Shown in pieces: positions 12,947 to 58,758 of a stretch of DNA of 64,000 nucleotides. Location of the stretch: the sequence record EF437941; one strand, 5' to 3'. Within the stretch, counting starts at the first letter, position 1. Every line of letters starts with the position of its first letter. This stretch comes from Escherichia phage Phi1. Made by a program: the position numbers and the translations under genes. The notes under the pieces are model-generated. The model had not been told where the DNA came from. It ran no database searches and was given only the letters and a program-made list of their open reading frames with translations.

Positions 12947-12982
12947 CCAAAAAACAAAAAAGGCTATCCCGAAGGATAGCCC
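12947..12982 (-). terminator. intrinsic terminator after the gp38-like gene
   Basis: Hairpin GGCTATCCTTCGGGATAGCC followed by TTTTTTGTTTTTT on the minus strand. Confidence 0.7.
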
Positions 12983-12988
12983 ATAAAA

Positions 12989-13765
12989 TTACACGCGAGC
13001 ACCGTAGATCGTGCCTACTTTATCCCAACGAGGGGCATTACCAGTAACGGCTTTACCAGCAGCACCACCGTTATATTCTGTACCGTTACCCTGAGTATTA
13101 CATCTTCCTCCAGCAGCACCAACGTTACCTCCAGCACCGCCTGTATATGCACTAAGAGACCCCGAACCAACAGATCCTTTACCTGGAGCGGAAATGGAGC
13201 CAGCGGTTGCACCAGAACCCATATTAGAGGAAGACCCACCAGCACCGAATGGGCGACCACCGCCACCACCAAATACTAGTATACCCCTGTTACCGCCACC
13301 ACCACCGCCACCGCCGCCAACGATAGCACCGTTATTTGTAATTCGTAGACGTGTACCGATAGCGTTATTGATTGCGTTTCCACCAGCAGCGCCAGCAGCG
13401 TTACTACCACCATTACCCCCACGTCCGTAGACAGTCACACCGGAGTTAATGATCAATGTTACATATTCGTTTGTTAACGAGCTAGGGAAGTCAAGACAAG
13501 GAACGCCAGTAGAATGAGAAACAATATTACCAGTGATAGTAATTACTACCGGAGTAGATCCTTGTGCTTTCATCCAGTTAATAAGAGTGTCTTTATTGTA
13601 AGAGTTACTAGCACCAATGCTATAATGAATCTCTTTAGAGCGTCCGACCATTGCCGACATATACGCCGGACGACCTAAGCGTACAGCTTGCATTGCGGCG
13701 CTCATCCACCGTTGACCAGTCTCGGACACCGCAGATGATCCTACCCATCCAGAAGATATTGCCAT
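12989..13765 (-). CDS. 38: glycine-rich protein, gp38-like receptor-recognising adhesin (T2-type architecture)
   Basis: N-terminus GWVGSSAVSETGQRWMS followed by several poly-Gly motifs separating short variable segments; about 258 aa; flanked by hairpins. Confidence 0.55.
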   Translation of the reverse strand: MAISSGWVGSSAVSETGQRWMSAAMQAVRLGRPAYMSAMVGRSKEIHYSIGASNSYNKDTLINWMKAQGSTPVVITITGNIVSHSTGVPCLDFPSSLTNEYVTLIINSGVTVYGRGGNGGSNAAGAAGGNAINNAIGTRLRITNNGAIVGGGGGGGGGNRGILVFGGGGGRPFGAGGSSSNMGSGATAGSISAPGKGSVGSGSLSAYTGGAGGNVGAAGGRCNTQGNGTEYNGGAAGKAVTGNAPRWDKVGTIYGARV

Positions 13766-15388: not shown

Positions 15389-15702
15389 TTGATTATATTT
15401 TATTCACGTCCATTTGTATAGTAGTGTTTGAATCGACCGTAACCAGTTTCAATGGTCATTGTTCTTTGGTGAACAATAGCCCAATAACCGTTACAGGAAT
15501 ATTGCAGATACAAATCTTTACCTTTCATAAACTCATTAAAGATTGTTTCTGCCAGTCATAATAGACAACATCTTCAAGTTACCCATCCATGCGGGTCTTC
15601 CGATTCGGCAGTAATTGAACACGCGAAAGTATGAGGAAGCCAAATGGTTGTGTTAATGCTAGTTTTCTTTTACTTCTGGTATGTATCCCACTGTGACTAA
15701 CA

Positions 15703-25439: not shown

Positions 25440-25628
25440 TTAGTCTTTTTTCATAATTTCTAGAGCAGTTTCTACAGCACCTTTCCAACCCTCCCACATA
25501 ATGGACATAGTAATGAAGTTAAAGCACCCGCAGGAATCAACCTTTTTAGAGATAAACCATTCAACAAATCCTTCGCTCATACCATGCTCTTTAGCGGATT
25601 CGCGTAATTGTTCAATTTGGTCTTCCAT
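25440..25628 (-). CDS. hypothetical protein
   Basis: Tiled ORF. Confidence 0.45.
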   Translation of the reverse strand: MEDQIEQLRESAKEHGMSEGFVEWFISKKVDSCGCFNFITMSIMWEGWKGAVETALEIMKKD

Positions 25629-25637
25629 AGTATCACC

Positions 25638-25826
25638 TCAACACTTAACGTTATTCAAACGATTTTGAAAGTACATATAGCAAGCATAATTTTGCTTTGG
25701 TTGTACCGTATCAGATAGACACGCTTTTACAGCCTCGCGGTCCGATGGATCTACACCCTCAGCTTTAAGTAATGCTAAAATCTGGTTATATCGTACTCTT
25801 AGTTGTACTAATGGTTTATCCCCCAT
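25638..25826 (-). CDS. hypothetical protein
   Basis: Internal ATG after GGGGGT RBS taken as start (track 25892). Confidence 0.4.
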   Translation of the reverse strand: MGDKPLVQLRVRYNQILALLKAEGVDPSDREAVKACLSDTVQPKQNYACYMYFQNRLNNVKC

Positions 25827-25836
25827 ATTACCCCCA

Positions 25837-26064
25837 TTATAGTTGATCAGCAATGTATGCGGTGCATTTGCGGAGTTTAGCCATAGCACCACCTTTCATG
25901 TCGCTTGCGCCTACAATGTTCATGATCTCTAAGCGATCAGCCGGATTCAGTCTAGTAGCCCAGATCTGGTTAGCCAGTTCCATTTTACCCATCTGCGGTT
26001 CCATCTCAAACAGTTCACGCTCAAAGTCGATAATTTCTTTTGCGGCGTCTTTAAAGTTAATCAT
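25837..26064 (-). CDS. hypothetical protein
   Basis: ORF behind stem-loop promoter ~26094-26122. Confidence 0.5.
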   Translation of the reverse strand: MINFKDAAKEIIDFERELFEMEPQMGKMELANQIWATRLNPADRLEIMNIVGASDMKGGAMAKLRKCTAYIADQL

Positions 26065-26093
26065 TTTGATTCTCCCGTTTCGTTGATGGTTGT

Positions 26094-26122
26094 ATTGTAG
26101 GGGAGTTATCCTCCCCTGTCAA
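26094..26122 (-). promoter_or_regulatory. early promoter with stem-loop in spacer (PeSL-like)
   Basis: TTGACA-GGGGAGGATAACTCCCC-TACAAT. Confidence 0.6.
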
Positions 26123-26130
26123 CACTTTTA

Positions 26131-26316
26131 TCAGAAATATGCAATATAGTTTGCCAGTCCTACAGAGTCATCATTCGGCATTGCTTTTACTGCCAGTTCA
26201 AACCCTGCTTCAACTTTCTGTTTAGCGGATTCTTCGTTATAACCCCAGATTACCAGAATAGCTACTACGTTTTCTTTGCTTACTGCTTTCAGTGCTTTAG
26301 TGATGCGACGTGCCAT
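26131..26316 (-). CDS. hypothetical protein
   Basis: ORF behind promoter ~26363-26391 and conserved leader. Confidence 0.5.
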   Translation of the reverse strand: MARRITKALKAVSKENVVAILVIWGYNEESAKQKVEAGFELAVKAMPNDDSVGLANYIAYF

Positions 26317-26362
26317 AATTTGATTCTCCGTTTAAGAAAGTGTGTTTCGTTTCGATGGGTGT

Positions 26363-26391
26363 ATTATGCTATAGGCCGGATCTGGTGTCAA
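26363..26391 (-). promoter_or_regulatory. early promoter
   Basis: TTGACA-N17-CATAAT followed by the conserved leader. Confidence 0.5.
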
Positions 26392-26417
26392 CAACTTTTT
26401 TAAAAAAATTTTAGGCA

Positions 26418-26447
26418 ATAAAAAAGCCACTCCGAAGAGTGGCTTAT
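26418..26447 (-). terminator. intrinsic terminator
   Basis: Hairpin AAGCCACTCTTCGGAGTGGCTT plus TTTTTTATTGCC on the minus strand. Confidence 0.7.
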
Positions 26448-26590
26448 AGGGAAGGTAGCGAATCTTCCTTGTCTCCAACCTGCTAGCGGCCTAGCAAGTG
26501 AATGCTTTAGCGTACCGGATCGCCCACATACGCTGTAATAAATGCGGCTAGGTGACGTCCAAATCATTCTAACCGCGCTGTCTTTAGTTC
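26448..26590 (-). ncRNA. candidate small non-coding RNA (late-promoter-like motif to terminator, no ORF)
   Basis: TATAAATA on the minus strand at ~26581-26588, ~130 nt with local hairpins (GGAAG...CTTCC, GCTAG..CTAGC), then a strong terminator. Confidence 0.3.
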
Positions 26591-26594
26591 ACTA

Positions 26595-26813
26595 TTATTT
26601 ATATCGCTTTCTCTCGCGACGTTTTTGATCTTCTTCCTTGATAGAGTTAAATGCATCAAAAAGACACATGACACTGATAATGAACATAACCGTATTTTCT
26701 ACGATATCCAACGGCTTCGCATCAGTACAGATCACCCAAACGGTAAGAAATGCAAATAAGGCAGAAGAGATCACAAGCATGATACTTGCTAAGATATAAA
26801 AAGTCATTTTCAT
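26595..26813 (-). CDS. small membrane protein
   Basis: 72 aa, hydrophobic N-terminus, basic tail. Confidence 0.45.
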   Translation of the reverse strand: MKMTFYILASIMLVISSALFAFLTVWVICTDAKPLDIVENTVMFIISVMCLFDAFNSIKEEDQKRRERKRYK

Positions 26814-27004
26814 GGTTTTACCTCAATTCTTCGATATTCATCACACATCCACGCAGTAAGCAAGAATCCCAACACATAAGCAACAAAATACGTTAATGCT
26901 TCTTCTGGTTCGGTGCTATGCGCCATCATCAGACCAGCGAGAAAGGTCTTAACAATTACATTTAAAATAATTAGCCACGCAAATAATTTCATCGTTTGCC
27001 CCAT
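26810..27004 (-). CDS. small membrane protein
   Basis: 64 aa, two TM helices. Confidence 0.45.
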   Translation of the reverse strand: MGQTMKLFAWLIILNVIVKTFLAGLMMAHSTEPEEALTYFVAYVLGFLLTAWMCDEYRRIEVKP

Positions 27005-27228
27005 TTCGGACGAGTCTTTTCAAACTTATACATTACGCAACAATCTCGAATCATCCACGTAACAAGAGCACCAGTCAACACAGACAACACACAGAAGAAG
27101 TAAAACGGTCCGGTTGCATTATCAACATGAGCAAGCCATGTAAAGAAAACACATGCAAGGAATGTAAAGAACATCATAAAACACAAGAAAGCAAAATATT
27201 TTATGCTACTCATAGCGCCACCATACAA
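26989..27228 (-). CDS. small membrane protein
   Basis: 79 aa, hydrophobic. Confidence 0.45.
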   Translation of the reverse strand: MYGGAMSSIKYFAFLCFMMFFTFLACVFFTWLAHVDNATGPFYFFCVLSVLTGALVTWMIRDCCVMYKFEKTRPKWGKR

Positions 27229-27316
27229 CAGATCATAAGAAAACCCAACGCAATAAGAATTGCATCAAATTTAGTGAACTCCGGTCCACCTATCAACATC
27301 ATTCGTTCCTGTTCAG

Positions 27317-27559
27317 TTATAGATCACAGAGCCATCTTAAAGCACCACATAAAGCGAGCAGAATACTAGGTATAAACGAGATCAAAACAAGTTTGCAAAA
27401 ATCATCTAAGGTAACACCGGAATAGCTACCAACTGTAACAACACCGATCATAAGACACAGAAAGAAAACAAATGCAATCAGAAACAAAGTATTGCTAAAC
27501 AGTTTAGTGATCATTAGACACCCCACGACGGTCAATTTCAAAAACTTTTTTATCATCAA
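27317..27559 (-). CDS. small membrane protein
   Basis: 80 aa, hydrophobic. Confidence 0.45.
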   Translation of the reverse strand: MMIKKFLKLTVVGCLMITKLFSNTLFLIAFVFFLCLMIGVVTVGSYSGVTLDDFCKLVLISFIPSILLALCGALRWLCDL

Positions 27560-27707
27560 CGAAGCATGTCACAACTGCCTCGTTGACTTCCGCAAATTGT
27601 TGTGTTACCCACTTAAGGTCAGATCGAAACAATGTTCTATTAATAACAAATGTTTTACCGCTCTTATCCTTACCCATAAATTTTGCTTTAACCATATCCA
27701 ATTCCAT
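27504..27707 (-). CDS. hypothetical protein
   Basis: Soluble 67-aa ORF, tiled. Confidence 0.4.
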   Translation of the reverse strand: MELDMVKAKFMGKDKSGKTFVINRTLFRSDLKWVTQQFAEVNEAVVTCFVDDKKVFEIDRRGVSNDH

Positions 27708-28427: not shown

Positions 28428-28898
28428 TTACAGTTTGGTCGTCCACTCCAGGTCTAGATCTTCGACATATTCATGAGATCGGACAATCTCTAAATCGAAC
28501 TCTAGGTCAGTGCCAAATTTACGCGCACCAACATCATAAGAAAGCGTGATATGCGGTACATATTCAGGATAATCCCACGTCGCACCTAAAGCAGTTCCGA
28601 TATCGTGTCTGAATTGCATGTAGTCGCTTTCAAATGCCAACACAAGCGCATTAGTACCGGATTGAGTTTCAAACACTTTCAGATGGCATAGAGAGCCTAA
28701 AAACTTTTCACCCTCTTCTGGGATAAACGGAACATAGACACGAGAATATAAGATAGTGCTATGCAGTTTATCACGAGGAACGGCATTAGGCAGATCGTAG
28801 AACTCCTGCAATTTTTCAATGCGGTCTAGTGTATCCTCAGTGAATTTAACAGCCGCATATGTACCTTTAACGGATTCTCGAAACGGGGTCATAATCAA
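28428..28898 (-). CDS. 57B: gp57B-like protein
   Basis: Size (156 aa) and position immediately downstream of 57A in the 1-57A-57B order of T4; synteny only. Confidence 0.45.
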   Translation of the reverse strand: MIMTPFRESVKGTYAAVKFTEDTLDRIEKLQEFYDLPNAVPRDKLHSTILYSRVYVPFIPEEGEKFLGSLCHLKVFETQSGTNALVLAFESDYMQFRHDIGTALGATWDYPEYVPHITLSYDVGARKFGTDLEFDLEIVRSHEYVEDLDLEWTTKL

Positions 28899-29187: not shown

Positions 29188-29844
29188 TTAAATGTTCGCG
29201 AGAATCGCGCTTTCAAATTCTTCTAATGTGCCATTATTTATAATGATGGTTTCACCGTCAATAGGCAAAATTCCTTTTTCGGTGGAGTGAGTCGATACAA
29301 TACCAGTATCACGCTGAATATGCAACACCTTAGCACCCATAGAACGCATGAGAGCAATTTCAATAGGCTGACGCACATCAACCACTACAAAATACCCTTC
29401 TTCATTTTTGCGCTTCATAAACTCATCCACAAAGAGATTACACCAATAAAGCGGATTGATCAAGTTAACCATTATATCAGTACCGAGAGTGGTTAACATG
29501 AGACGAATAGACCAGACGTTATTATGTTTTTCGCCGATCTCATTAACGACCTTGTAAATCTCAGCCAGACGATCACAAGTAAAGGAGCTACCGCCATACT
29601 TCGAATCTAGCATAAGCAGACACTGAATAAACCACTTATGCGCGGTGTAGGTATCAATACCTAGATCGGCTTCTCTGTCACGCCCTAACCCGTCAAAGTC
29701 AAGATAAGTCAGACCTAAGTCTGGTTGACATTCGCATAAGATTTCTTTGATCGGTGCTGCCAGTTGATAACTGTGTCCATCAATGATTAACGCGGCAGTG
29801 TCTTTTCCTACTCGCTTTTTACCACAAAGTGCAATCAATTTCAT
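29188..29844 (-). CDS. 1: deoxynucleoside monophosphate kinase
   Basis: N-terminal P-loop GKKRVGKDT; LGTD and DVRQ motifs match T4 gp1 as recalled. Confidence 0.9.
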   Translation of the reverse strand: MKLIALCGKKRVGKDTAALIIDGHSYQLAAPIKEILCECQPDLGLTYLDFDGLGRDREADLGIDTYTAHKWFIQCLLMLDSKYGGSSFTCDRLAEIYKVVNEIGEKHNNVWSIRLMLTTLGTDIMVNLINPLYWCNLFVDEFMKRKNEEGYFVVVDVRQPIEIALMRSMGAKVLHIQRDTGIVSTHSTEKGILPIDGETIIINNGTLEEFESAILANI

Positions 29845-30450: not shown

Positions 30451-30639
30451 TACTGATTCCTCAAATGAAAATATTTATTAACAATTGTCGCTTTGCGACG
30501 TGCCGTAGGCACTGACTACTTTTTAACCGAAACAAATTTTTATTATTCTAAAGATCTTTCTTCGTTTTGGTTATGTTTTAACCAATAACTATATTTTTAT
30601 ACAGTAATAAATAAAACGGGTACTATACGAGGACTTCTT

Positions 30640-43207: not shown

Positions 43208-44046
43208 TGGCACGACTTTCTAAACAAGAACAAAAATTACATAACCGAGCAATGGAGTTGATTAATTCAGATCGTCCATTGACATATGAAGAAAAAGAAT
43301 TTTGCTATAATAACTATCATGGCGATGGGCTAGGTGGTTCCGGTGCATTCTTTACCCCAGAAGGGCTTGCATGGGATTTTACCATCGATGCACATTGCAC
43401 AGGAAAAGTATTAGATCTTTGTGCTGGGATCGGTCGCTTATCTTTTTGTATGTTACATCGTTGTAAGCCAGAAAAGATCGTATGCGTCGAACTCAATCCA
43501 GAATTTGCGCGGATTGGCAAGCGACTATTACCGGAGGCAGAATGGATCACCAGCGATGTATTCGAATTTGAGTCAAACGAAAAATTCGATGTGGTGATCA
43601 GCAATCCACCCTTCGGGAAAATCAATACAACCGACACAAAGGATGTATTTGAGTACACTGGCGGCGAATTTGAATTTAAGGTTATGACATTAGGCCAGAA
43701 GTTTGCCGATGTAGGTTATTTTATTGTTCCTTCTGGTTCCGCTGGTTTTGCCTATTCCGGCAGACCTTATTATGACGGGACCATGAAGTCTAATAAATAT
43801 CTAAAATGGAGCAAACAAACTGGTTTGGTGACTTATGCCGGATGTGGGATCGATACATCAATCTATCGCGATGAATGGCATAGTACCAACGTTTTAACAG
43901 AAGTGGTTGAGGTTCGGTATTACGAAAAAGAAGCCGTAGAAGCTCCTAAATCACGTCCTAACGAACAAATAGAAGAAAGTAAGGAGATTACCTTACCGAA
44001 ACAGGAAAGCGAGTCTGGGACGCTCTCAGATTTGTTTGACATTTAA
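43207..44046 (+). CDS. SAM-dependent amino-methyltransferase (N6-adenine-type, gamma-class motif order)
   Basis: FFTP motif, motif I VLDLCAGIG, motif IV NPPF in that order; 279 aa; start overlaps the upstream stop. Confidence 0.75.
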   Translation: MARLSKQEQKLHNRAMELINSDRPLTYEEKEFCYNNYHGDGLGGSGAFFTPEGLAWDFTIDAHCTGKVLDLCAGIGRLSFCMLHRCKPEKIVCVELNPEFARIGKRLLPEAEWITSDVFEFESNEKFDVVISNPPFGKINTTDTKDVFEYTGGEFEFKVMTLGQKFADVGYFIVPSGSAGFAYSGRPYYDGTMKSNKYLKWSKQTGLVTYAGCGIDTSIYRDEWHSTNVLTEVVEVRYYEKEAVEAPKSRPNEQIEESKEITLPKQESESGTLSDLFDI

Positions 44047-44050
44047 TTAT

Positions 44051-44077
44051 AAGCCGTCCTTGTGGGCGGCTTTTTTG
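44051..44077 (+). terminator. intrinsic terminator after the methyltransferase
   Basis: Hairpin GCCGTCCTTGTGGGCGGC followed by TTTTTTG. Confidence 0.65.
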
Positions 44078-44086
44078 TATGTATTT

Positions 44087-44094
44087 TATAAATA
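44087..44094 (+). promoter_or_regulatory. T4-type late promoter (TATAAATA) for gene 9
   Basis: Exact TATAAATA ~28 nt upstream of the ATG. Confidence 0.65.
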
Positions 44095-58263: not shown

Positions 58264-58758
58264 ATGGCACTCGATTTGAATGATATTACACGCGGTTTCG
58301 AGTCTGGCGATTTTGCTCGTCCTAACCTGTTTGAAGTTGAGATCCCGTATCTGGGGCAAAACTTTAAGCTGATGTGTAAGGCTGCGACTGTCCCGGCTGC
58401 TACCGTAGAAAAAATTGCTATAGGCTATCAAAACCGTAAAATTAACATCGCTGGCGACCGTGTATACGACGACTGGACCATCACTGTATTCAACGATGAC
58501 GCACACAAGATCCGTGATGCTATCGTTGCATGGAGCGATCAGACACACGGCACTGGTTCGGCGATCACTGGTGCAACTCCTGCACAATATAAGAAACAAG
58601 CTATTGTTCGTCAACTTAACCGTAACACCGAATCAACTAGCGAAAAAACATTGTACGGTATTTTCCCTACCAACGTTGGTGAAGTAACCCTCGATTGGGA
58701 ACAAAACAACGAAGTTGAAACGTTTGAAGTTACTTTTGCTATCGATTGGGTAGAATAA
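58264..58758 (+). CDS. 19: tail tube protein gp19
   Basis: 164 aa; synteny. Confidence 0.9.
   Translation: MALDLNDITRGFESGDFARPNLFEVEIPYLGQNFKLMCKAATVPAATVEKIAIGYQNRKINIAGDRVYDDWTITVFNDDAHKIRDAIVAWSDQTHGTGSAITGATPAQYKKQAIVRQLNRNTESTSEKTLYGIFPTNVGEVTLDWEQNNEVETFEVTFAIDWVE

Follow-up and report, generated by a model that had tools for sequence, protein, structure and literature searches.

Escherichia phage Phi1 (sequence record EF437941) is treated here through a window of 64,000 nucleotides, the whole stretch of DNA that was analysed, which is part of an RB49-type Krischvirus (T4-related) genome. The subject of this report is a candidate structured RNA on the minus strand, at about 26590-26420, between a gene of 72 amino acids (aa) and a gene of 61 aa. 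The minus strand carries every gene of this part of the window. In its direction, a run of small early genes including dmd is closed by the 72-aa gene (ORF118), and then follow 149 nt, a terminator, an A/T-rich tract, an early promoter, and the 61-aa gene (ORF61). Terminator, tract, and promoter belong to a promoter-early stem-loop (PeSL). Over the 321 bases around the element, identity is 100% to phage ELT4 and 99.7% to RB49 (NC_005066, 58594-58914). The upstream gene ends with TAT AAA TAA TAG TGA, and the body between its stop codon and the terminator (26594-26446) contains no annotated gene. At 149 nt, this body is longer than the segment of about 130 nt free of open reading frames (ORFs) that the original prediction, made from the letters of the DNA, had described. 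The same prediction had found no ORF on either strand between 26316 and 26595, which is correct for ORFs of at least 60 aa, but mechanical ORFs of 20-55 aa cross the segment. Nearby annotated genes stop about 8 nt ahead of their terminators; the gap of about 150 nt at this site is locally unusual. In GenBank annotation of RB49-like phages, the interval is blank in some records and filled with conflicting short coding sequences (CDSs), that is, mutually inconsistent hypothetical proteins, in others. The body is not described in the PeSL papers PMC2839356 (by term search) and PMC4122927, in the lists checked of Nolan et al. (2006; PMC1524935), or in the GenBank records examined. Coordinates are collected in Table 1.

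Table 1. Features of the locus and substitutions in predicted stems; positions are those of the window.
Feature	Position	Strand	Basis or remark
Upstream gene, 72 aa, predicted membrane protein, RB49p118, phrog_15168	26598..26813	-	ORF and family match
Late-promoter-like motif of T4 type, TATAAATA	26596..26603	-	exact match; overlaps TAT AAA TAA of upstream gene
Triple in-frame stops TAA TAG TGA closing upstream gene	26589..26597	-	sequence
5' leader GAACUAAAGACAGC, predicted single-stranded	26577..26590	-	folding; one variable site, 26582 (G to A, or deleted)
Hairpin 1: 8-bp lower stem, 4-bp upper stem, loop UUGGAC	26544..26576	-	-13.5 kcal/mol, z = -3.25
Hairpin 2: conserved 7-bp lower stem, hypervariable tip 26527-26516	26509..26534	-	folding and alignment
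Hairpin 3: 8-bp stem, loop GCCG, contains GCTAGGCCGCTAGC	26479..26498	-	-10.3 kcal/mol on minus strand vs -6.6 on plus strand
Hairpin 4: GGAAG/CUUCC 5-bp stem, 9-nt loop	26450..26468	-	folding
Intrinsic terminator: 9-bp stem, UUCG loop, T6; stem-loop part of PeSL	26418..26447	-	predicted
PeSL early promoter: A/T-rich upstream element, -35 TTGACA (26391-26386), 17-nt spacer, -10 CATAAT (26368-26363)	26363..26417	-	sequence
Downstream gene, 61 aa, DUF7421, RB49p117; predicted to be driven by PeSL promoter, outside RNA candidate	26134..26316	-	ORF and family match
Stem change A to G, hairpin 1	26549		U-A to U-G
Stem change A to G, hairpin 2	26534		A-U to G-U
Stem change G to A, hairpin 2	26533		gives A-U, in lineages already with the 26510 change
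Stem change C to T, hairpin 2	26512		G-C to G-U
Stem change C to T, hairpin 2	26510		G-C to G-U
Stem change A to G, hairpin 4	26466		A-U to G-U

The body is a constant part of Krischvirus genomes. It occurs once, at 96-100% identity, in 57 of 57 Krischvirus records, and these are the only matches to a 147-nt body query among 50,697 phage records (blastn, E up to 10), with no homolog beyond the genus. Variation was counted in an alignment of 25 Krischvirus-type sequences, composed of 16 GenBank or IMG/VR loci and of metagenomic contigs reached through the upstream protein. Body and terminator together, leaving aside hairpin 2, vary at 9 of 149 columns (6%). These are two of the 57 columns in the 5' part of the body (26594-26538), seven of the 62 in the 3' part (26509-26448), and none of the 30 in the terminator. 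The hairpin 2 block (26537-26510) varies at 12 of 28 columns, and the PeSL promoter region, from the A/T-rich element through the -10, at 15 of 55. Compared with the 9/149 of the element, third codon positions of the four flanking ORFs vary at 111/276 (40%; Fisher p = 1e-15) and their first and second positions at 81/552 (15%; p = 0.004). Even in the very conserved downstream ORF61, which lies in the same low-divergence block, 15 of 61 third positions vary (p = 4e-4). The corresponding count for the upstream 72-aa gene is 42 of 72. The most divergent relatives (loci L003 and L054) have 40-47 differences in the 216 positions of the upstream ORF and 1-3 in the 119 of the body outside hairpin 2. 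Conserved stretches take turns with variable ones, hairpin 2 and the promoter region among the latter, over tens of nucleotides, and a recent sweep by recombination could not have produced such a pattern. These counts show that purifying selection acts on the sequence outside the hairpin 2 tip, and does so more strongly than on the flanking proteins.

The selected sequence does not look like a gene. The longest mechanical ORF across the body has 55 aa (26400..26567); elsewhere it has 15, 19, 24, or 65 aa with different C-termini, and in most relatives indels and stops reduce it to 15-24 aa. A conserved reading frame is ruled out by the 1-2 nt indels of hairpin 2, as they put every frame out of register. 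Neither the 55-aa ORF nor a 48-aa ORF has a PHROG or Pfam match, whereas both flanking genes do. There is no Shine-Dalgarno sequence upstream of the ATG of the 55-aa ORF (26567), and this ATG lies within the stem of hairpin 1. A protein product from the body is very unlikely on such features.

RNA transcribed from the minus strand is predicted to fold into four hairpins followed by the terminator. Two local hairpins named in the original prediction are present, GGAAG/CTTCC at 26468-26464 and 26454-26450 and GCTAG-GCCG-CTAGC at 26495-26482. Among 33 sequences, hairpin 1 varies only at loop site 26557 and stem site 26549, and hairpin 3 has an invariant stem and a single loop change (26490). The linker GUUGGAGACAA just ahead of hairpin 4 is predicted to be single-stranded and contains GGAG. 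The tip of hairpin 2 carries indels of 1-2 nt, and each of the 12 hairpin 2 variants among the first 19 sequences still gives a hairpin fold, variable at its tip. RNA folding had been proposed as a check of the candidate; the fold was only moderately better than that of shuffled sequence, z being -2.8 when the terminator was included and -1.9 to -2.0 when it was left out. Stability is greater on the minus strand for hairpins 1-3 and for the whole body.

Two further observations concern these hairpins. The hairpin 2 tip, with 12 variants in the first 19 of 33 otherwise near-identical phages and more after that, changes in the length of a G-run, and its loops alternate between GNRA-like (GCGA, GUGA) and UUAA forms. 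Neutral slippage and diversifying selection would both be candidate causes of this variability. The motif CTAG(G)CCGC occurs twice on the minus strand about 56 nt apart, in the 3' arm of hairpin 1 (26544-26551) and in the 5' arm and loop of hairpin 3 (26486-26494); the two copies could be a repeated recognition site or could allow alternative pairing.

Substitutions within stems can be read against the predicted pairs, and they were counted over the 33 sequences. All six are transitions, and in RNA of the minus strand each leaves a pair of Watson-Crick or G-U type (Table 1). Each of them would be an A-C mismatch in plus-strand RNA or in a DNA hairpin. The changes at 26510 and 26533 together make a stepwise series from G-C to G-U to A-U. 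Transversions make up four or five of about 11 changes at unpaired sites but are absent from the stems. By our own estimate, if one in two random transitions preserves pairing, six pair-compatible changes out of six would occur with a probability of about 0.016; the value is lower if transversions are included. Together with the folding results, the pattern favors an RNA-level constraint on the gene-sense strand, and the case is not yet strong.

PeSLs are repeated composite elements of terminator and early promoter in phages of the RB49/phi1 type, as presented by Arbiol et al. (2010; PMC2839356) and Comeau et al. (2014; PMC4122927). PeSL-mediated shuffling is documented, and PeSLs are proposed to mediate recombination, in the former (PMC2839356). 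The present locus has this layout, with a G+C-rich stem-loop in an intergenic site of the hyperplastic region (terminator role predicted), an A/T-rich tract, an early promoter, and repetition. The terminator-like hairpin (26445..26424, minus strand) has 9 bp, five of them G-C pairs, and a UUCG loop, and is followed by T6 to 26420. The promoter (TTGACA-17-CATAAT) agrees with the consensus at 11 of 12 positions and has an A/T-rich tract ahead of it. The promoter half has five additional copies in the window at 79-87% identity, and each Krischvirus genome has about 10 places with a PeSL match. Nolan et al. (2006; PMC1524935 supplement) predicted the same terminator in RB49 (58720-58737, "ORF117c<--ORF118c") and the same early promoter (Pe:58699, score 43.6), and the terminator is also annotated in GEC-3S. 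The strong terminator of the original prediction, hairpin and T-run, exists, but it is not private to a candidate RNA, being the PeSL stem-loop that also ends the upstream early operon. This locus resembles other PeSLs in its 3' hairpin (26445-26424), its A/T-rich tract, and its TTGACA-17-CATAAT promoter (26391-26363). It differs from them by the 149-nt body (26594-26446), which is single-copy, lies outside the repeated cassette, and has no paralog in the window. Terminator and neighboring early promoter are already known PeSL parts; the new part is the body. In phage FL15 (locus L070), the terminator loop homologous to 26436-26433 is changed from TTCG to its reverse complement CGAA with the stem unchanged, an inversion that probably arose by template switching.

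Late promoters of the T4 type carry their motif at -13 to -6 (PMC1524935). The original prediction had placed such a motif at about 26581-26588; the sole nearby TATAAATA lies 15 nt upstream of that, at 26596-26603 (minus strand). From this motif, a start at 26590 is predicted, which would give an RNA of 171 nt. TATAAATA occurs eight times in the window against 5.8 expected from shuffles, so it is not enriched by count alone. Of the seven other copies, six are followed at 20-40 nt by a ribosome-binding site with an ATG, two of these likewise overlap a stop codon, and most look like working late promoters. A working late promoter at 26596-26603 is plausible but unproven. The motif at this locus is retained in 24 of the 25 aligned sequences and deleted in one metagenomic relative, L036 (MAVA01000028.1). 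There, in the stretch homologous to 26590-26627, a 2-nt insertion and a 14-nt deletion remove GATATAAATAATAG; the C-terminus of the upstream protein changes from KRRERKRYK to KNVARES, its gene closes at the third tandem stop, and the RNA candidate is untouched. A second TATAAATA of the early-strand region, at 29235-29242 (minus strand), lies about 75 nt ahead of where 57A starts and close to the 3' end of gene 1, and is also missing from the published RB49 late-promoter list.

Searches for relatives covered sequence, structure, and neighboring protein. In IMG/VR, 23-24-mers match only two Krischvirus contigs, and 17-mers add only unrelated coding-sequence matches. A 20-mer scan of GTDB genomes gave a single chance match, and a scan of JGI metagenomes with the upstream protein gave three loci, all close relatives. 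Only six clusters match the upstream protein, all at 81% identity or more, and the next relatives by Acb1 (57B) have at most 51% identity, which leaves a gap without intermediates. A covariance model built from the element has no match in the T4 tRNA/rnaC/rnaD region (tRNA, transfer RNA), in syntenic Muldoonvirus, Hadassahvirus, or Pseudotevenvirus loci, or in T1-like loci. Its two weak matches in the window, at 43965-44080 (plus strand) and 12953-13085 (minus strand), are terminator look-alikes. Their starts read UAUAAGCC or UUAUGGGC and their ends GGCUUUUUU or GCCUUUUUU, and the UUCG loop is shared by one of them; that at 43965-44080 directly precedes a TATAAATA late promoter at 44087. The covariance-model search proposed for the candidate was also made with Rfam over the whole window, and no family reached its gathering threshold. 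The best relaxed matches (26200-26800) were EF3314_EF3315 (RF02634; 23.9 bits vs a threshold of 100) and RNAI (RF00106; 22.8 vs 47). Membership in either was rejected on these sub-threshold scores (Rfam 15).

Several other candidate identities or activities were tried and rejected. At the sequence level, the element neither copies nor mimics a host RNA, as only the terminator hairpin matches E. coli. CsrA-type sites were dismissed because the three GGA motifs are about the chance number, and a likeness to a type I-F repeat of clustered regularly interspaced short palindromic repeats (CRISPR) because it is weak and has no hairpin. Full-length RNAduplex pairings were discarded as unrealistic duplexes.

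To judge from its sequence, the most likely identity of the element is an RNA that is structured and functional. A somewhat better than even case can be made that 26590-26420 (minus strand) encodes a non-coding structured RNA of about 145-171 nt, restricted to Krischvirus, with a function of its own. Such an RNA would begin with a short leader, predicted to be single-stranded, continue with four hairpins, and end in the terminator hairpin of the PeSL. The small-RNA idea of the original prediction survives as a non-coding structured minus-strand RNA that ends at the terminator, given selection, no frame, and pair-preserving changes; its promoter was misplaced and its terminator is shared. Because the element is located before the terminator of the upstream early genes, it is certain to be transcribed if they are. 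In the early phase, the RNA would be the 3' end of a polycistronic transcript running from upstream early promoters through dmd and ORF118 to the PeSL terminator. In the late phase, TATAAATA may in addition start a transcript of its own at 26590, about 171 nt long. The terminator hairpin, U-tail, and triple stop would keep ribosomes off and protect the 3' end, so that a discrete stable RNA could accumulate. This RNA would then most likely act by base pairing or protein binding, in the manner of enterobacterial small RNAs (sRNAs) from messenger RNA (mRNA) 3' ends.

A number of results weigh against this interpretation. Folding z-scores are modest (-1.9 to -2.8), and hairpin 4 alone folds better on the plus strand. 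Covariation is thin, with only one fully compensated pair. A shuffle control on an earlier alignment of 13 sequences was not significant (39/500), as most stems never vary at such shallow divergence. Overall identity among the sequences is nowhere below about 90%, and the databases searched gave no homolog outside the genus on which to test the structure. TATAAATA is inseparable from the Tyr-Lys-stop coding constraint, and the copy at this locus is not among the 17 late promoters predicted in RB49 (Nolan et al., 2006; PMC1524935 supplement). L036 has lost it and keeps the remainder of the element, so the promoter is not indispensable to whatever is selected. As to targets, 5,426 complete E. 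coli genomes have no match of about 20 nt or more except to the terminator hairpin, and ungapped helices with transcripts of the 64-kb window are no better than shuffled controls. No Krischvirus transcriptome or sRNA report was found in the searched literature.

The main alternative, possible but unlikely in our view, is a purely cis-acting 3' untranslated region (UTR) element of the early dmd-ORF118 operon, without a separate functional small RNA. It could protect the mRNA from 3'-5' exonucleases, serve in processing (by RNase E, RNase III, or phage RegB at the GGAG of the linker between hairpins 3 and 4), or tune the efficiency of the PeSL terminator. The element directly follows the last stop of the co-directional early run and shares the operon terminator, and the GGAG lies in a predicted single-stranded linker. 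Its own promoter is dispensable in L036, and no trans target emerged from helices within the window or from E. coli matches of at least about 20 nt. However, other local terminators stand about 8 nt after a stop codon and need no such element, and about 150 nt with conserved loops and linkers exceeds what a protective hairpin needs. Anti-terminator pairing with the 5' arm of the terminator is not apparent (by eye only), a further point against this alternative; a riboswitch-like anti-terminator was rejected for the same reason.

A bolder form of the small-RNA interpretation seems distinctly improbable. Krischvirus, which has no tRNA genes, would carry a dedicated late or both-phase RNA in the T4-like tRNA/stable-RNA slot, acting in trans on the host. 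Such an RNA might be a decoy or sponge for a host defense nuclease, RNA-binding protein, or sRNA, and the hairpin 2 tip would then evolve in an arms race while the scaffold stays fixed.

There is little probability that the element functions as DNA, as a replication origin or as a protein-binding or recombination site in the hyperplastic region, with hairpins that are incidental or cruciform. Sequence conservation alone cannot separate DNA from RNA function, the region contains three CTAG sites and the near-palindrome GCTAGGCCGCTAGC, and the body adjoins a PeSL, a proposed recombination mediator (PMC2839356). Against this, each of the six stem substitutions makes or removes a G-U pair, and such pairs are meaningful only in minus-strand RNA, and the single-copy body is not part of the repeated PeSL. 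Clustering of CTAG was rejected, since three sites in the region are not significant for the window.

Equally small is the chance that the body has no function, as a spacer or as what is left of a former gene, and looks conserved through recent recombinational spread among Krischvirus. In L054 and L059, divergence is much lower across the block from about 26625 through ORF61 than in the upstream ORFs; such a contrast suggests mosaic ancestry. Shuffling through PeSLs is documented (PMC2839356). Neutral-like sites of the same block, however, vary far more than the element (ORF61 third positions 15/61, promoter region 15/55, and hairpin 2 12/28, vs 9/149), variable and invariant stretches alternate over tens of nucleotides, and every one of the 57 GenBank Krischvirus records keeps the element. 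A micro-protein of 15-65 aa by strain (MIWTSPSRIY...) is scarcely credible, even though the first 10 residues after the ATG at 26567 are nearly invariant and some annotators call short CDSs in the interval, given a length of 15, 19, 24, 55, or 65 aa by strain, C-termini that differ after frameshifts, CDS calls that conflict in strand and position, no family match, and an ATG inside the hairpin 1 stem with no Shine-Dalgarno sequence.

A functional structured RNA, the preferred reading, would have anti-defense genes for neighbors. Gene 57B (28428-28898, minus strand) matches Pfam Acb1, a phosphodiesterase directed against the cyclic oligonucleotide-based antiphage signaling system (anti-CBASS). 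Just downstream of 57B is dmd (about 27504-27707, minus strand), which encodes an antitoxin against RnlA/LsoA. With acb1 (57B) and dmd close by, the candidate RNA sits within an anti-defense gene cluster. On its other side, the 61-aa DUF7421 gene (26134-26369 with its 5' UTR, minus strand) has homologs of 73-80% DNA and protein identity in many T1-like siphophages of about 50 kb (loci L006-L021), and in T1-like phage PGN590, at least, the homology includes the 5' UTR up to the -10 region. These homologs point to exchange between unrelated coliphage families. In the stretch homologous to 25800-27300, most Krischvirus records (GEC-3S, Cognac, and others) are about 420-440 nt longer than the window, appearing as two blast pieces that span about 1920-1940 nt against 1501; ELT3, FL37, FL04, and UPWr_E1 have the shorter form. 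The difference, at about 25440-26064, looks like a small-gene indel in the hyperplastic region. Other stretches of the window with no ORF of at least 40 aa on either strand are 30451-30639 (189 nt) and 15562-15702 (141 nt).

Few regulatory RNAs have been described in strictly lytic T4-like phages, and the candidate is a new, genus-restricted example among phage small or 3'-UTR RNAs. It is a compact experimental target, being present genus-wide, selected more strongly than the neighboring proteins, marked by RNA-specific substitutions, and located in an anti-defense-rich region. RB49-like phages are common in therapeutic phage collections.

Comparison with T4 begins with gene order, which in that phage is 1, 57A, 57B, ipI, trna.2-4, tRNAs, rnaD, and rnaC. 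In Muldoonvirus and Hadassahvirus, tRNAs likewise follow 57B. The candidate element lies about 2 kb downstream of 57B, and ARAGORN finds no tRNA gene in the 64-kb window. The analogy with T4 small stable RNAs drawn in the original prediction is apt for position and kind, as the element shares their neighborhood downstream of genes 1, 57A, and 57B; it does not extend to family. Like rnaC (species 1) and rnaD (species 2), the element is a small non-coding phage RNA, as a candidate, on the same strand as the genes. Both T4 RNAs are encoded within the tRNA cluster; a T-arm like that of a tRNA, together with an acceptor-like stem, is present at least in rnaC. The element, in contrast, has no tRNA-like arm: neither a T-arm of the GTTCGAATC type nor a cloverleaf with an acceptor-like stem was found in it, in agreement with the first reading of the sequence and with the lack of any Rfam tRNA match. 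It also differs in ending at an intrinsic terminator, and it has no blastn or covariance-model similarity to rnaC or rnaD. The T4 RNAs themselves are annotated only as small stable RNAs, without assigned function. The likeness to EF3314_EF3315 (RF02634) and RNAI (RF00106) is of a more general kind, a run of hairpins ending in a terminator, which drives the relaxed matches.

Enterobacterial sRNAs can arise from mRNA 3' ends, either through an internal promoter, as for DapZ and MicL, or by processing, as for CpxQ and SroC. Such sRNAs are reviewed in PMC9438474. The candidate resembles them in its location at an mRNA 3' end, its shared intrinsic terminator, and a possible promoter inside the end of the upstream ORF. 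Its predicted 3' end is a hairpin with a U-tail, as in Hfq- or ProQ-dependent sRNAs. It differs from most enterobacterial 3'-end sRNAs in being longer (about 170 nt) and more structured, with four hairpins.

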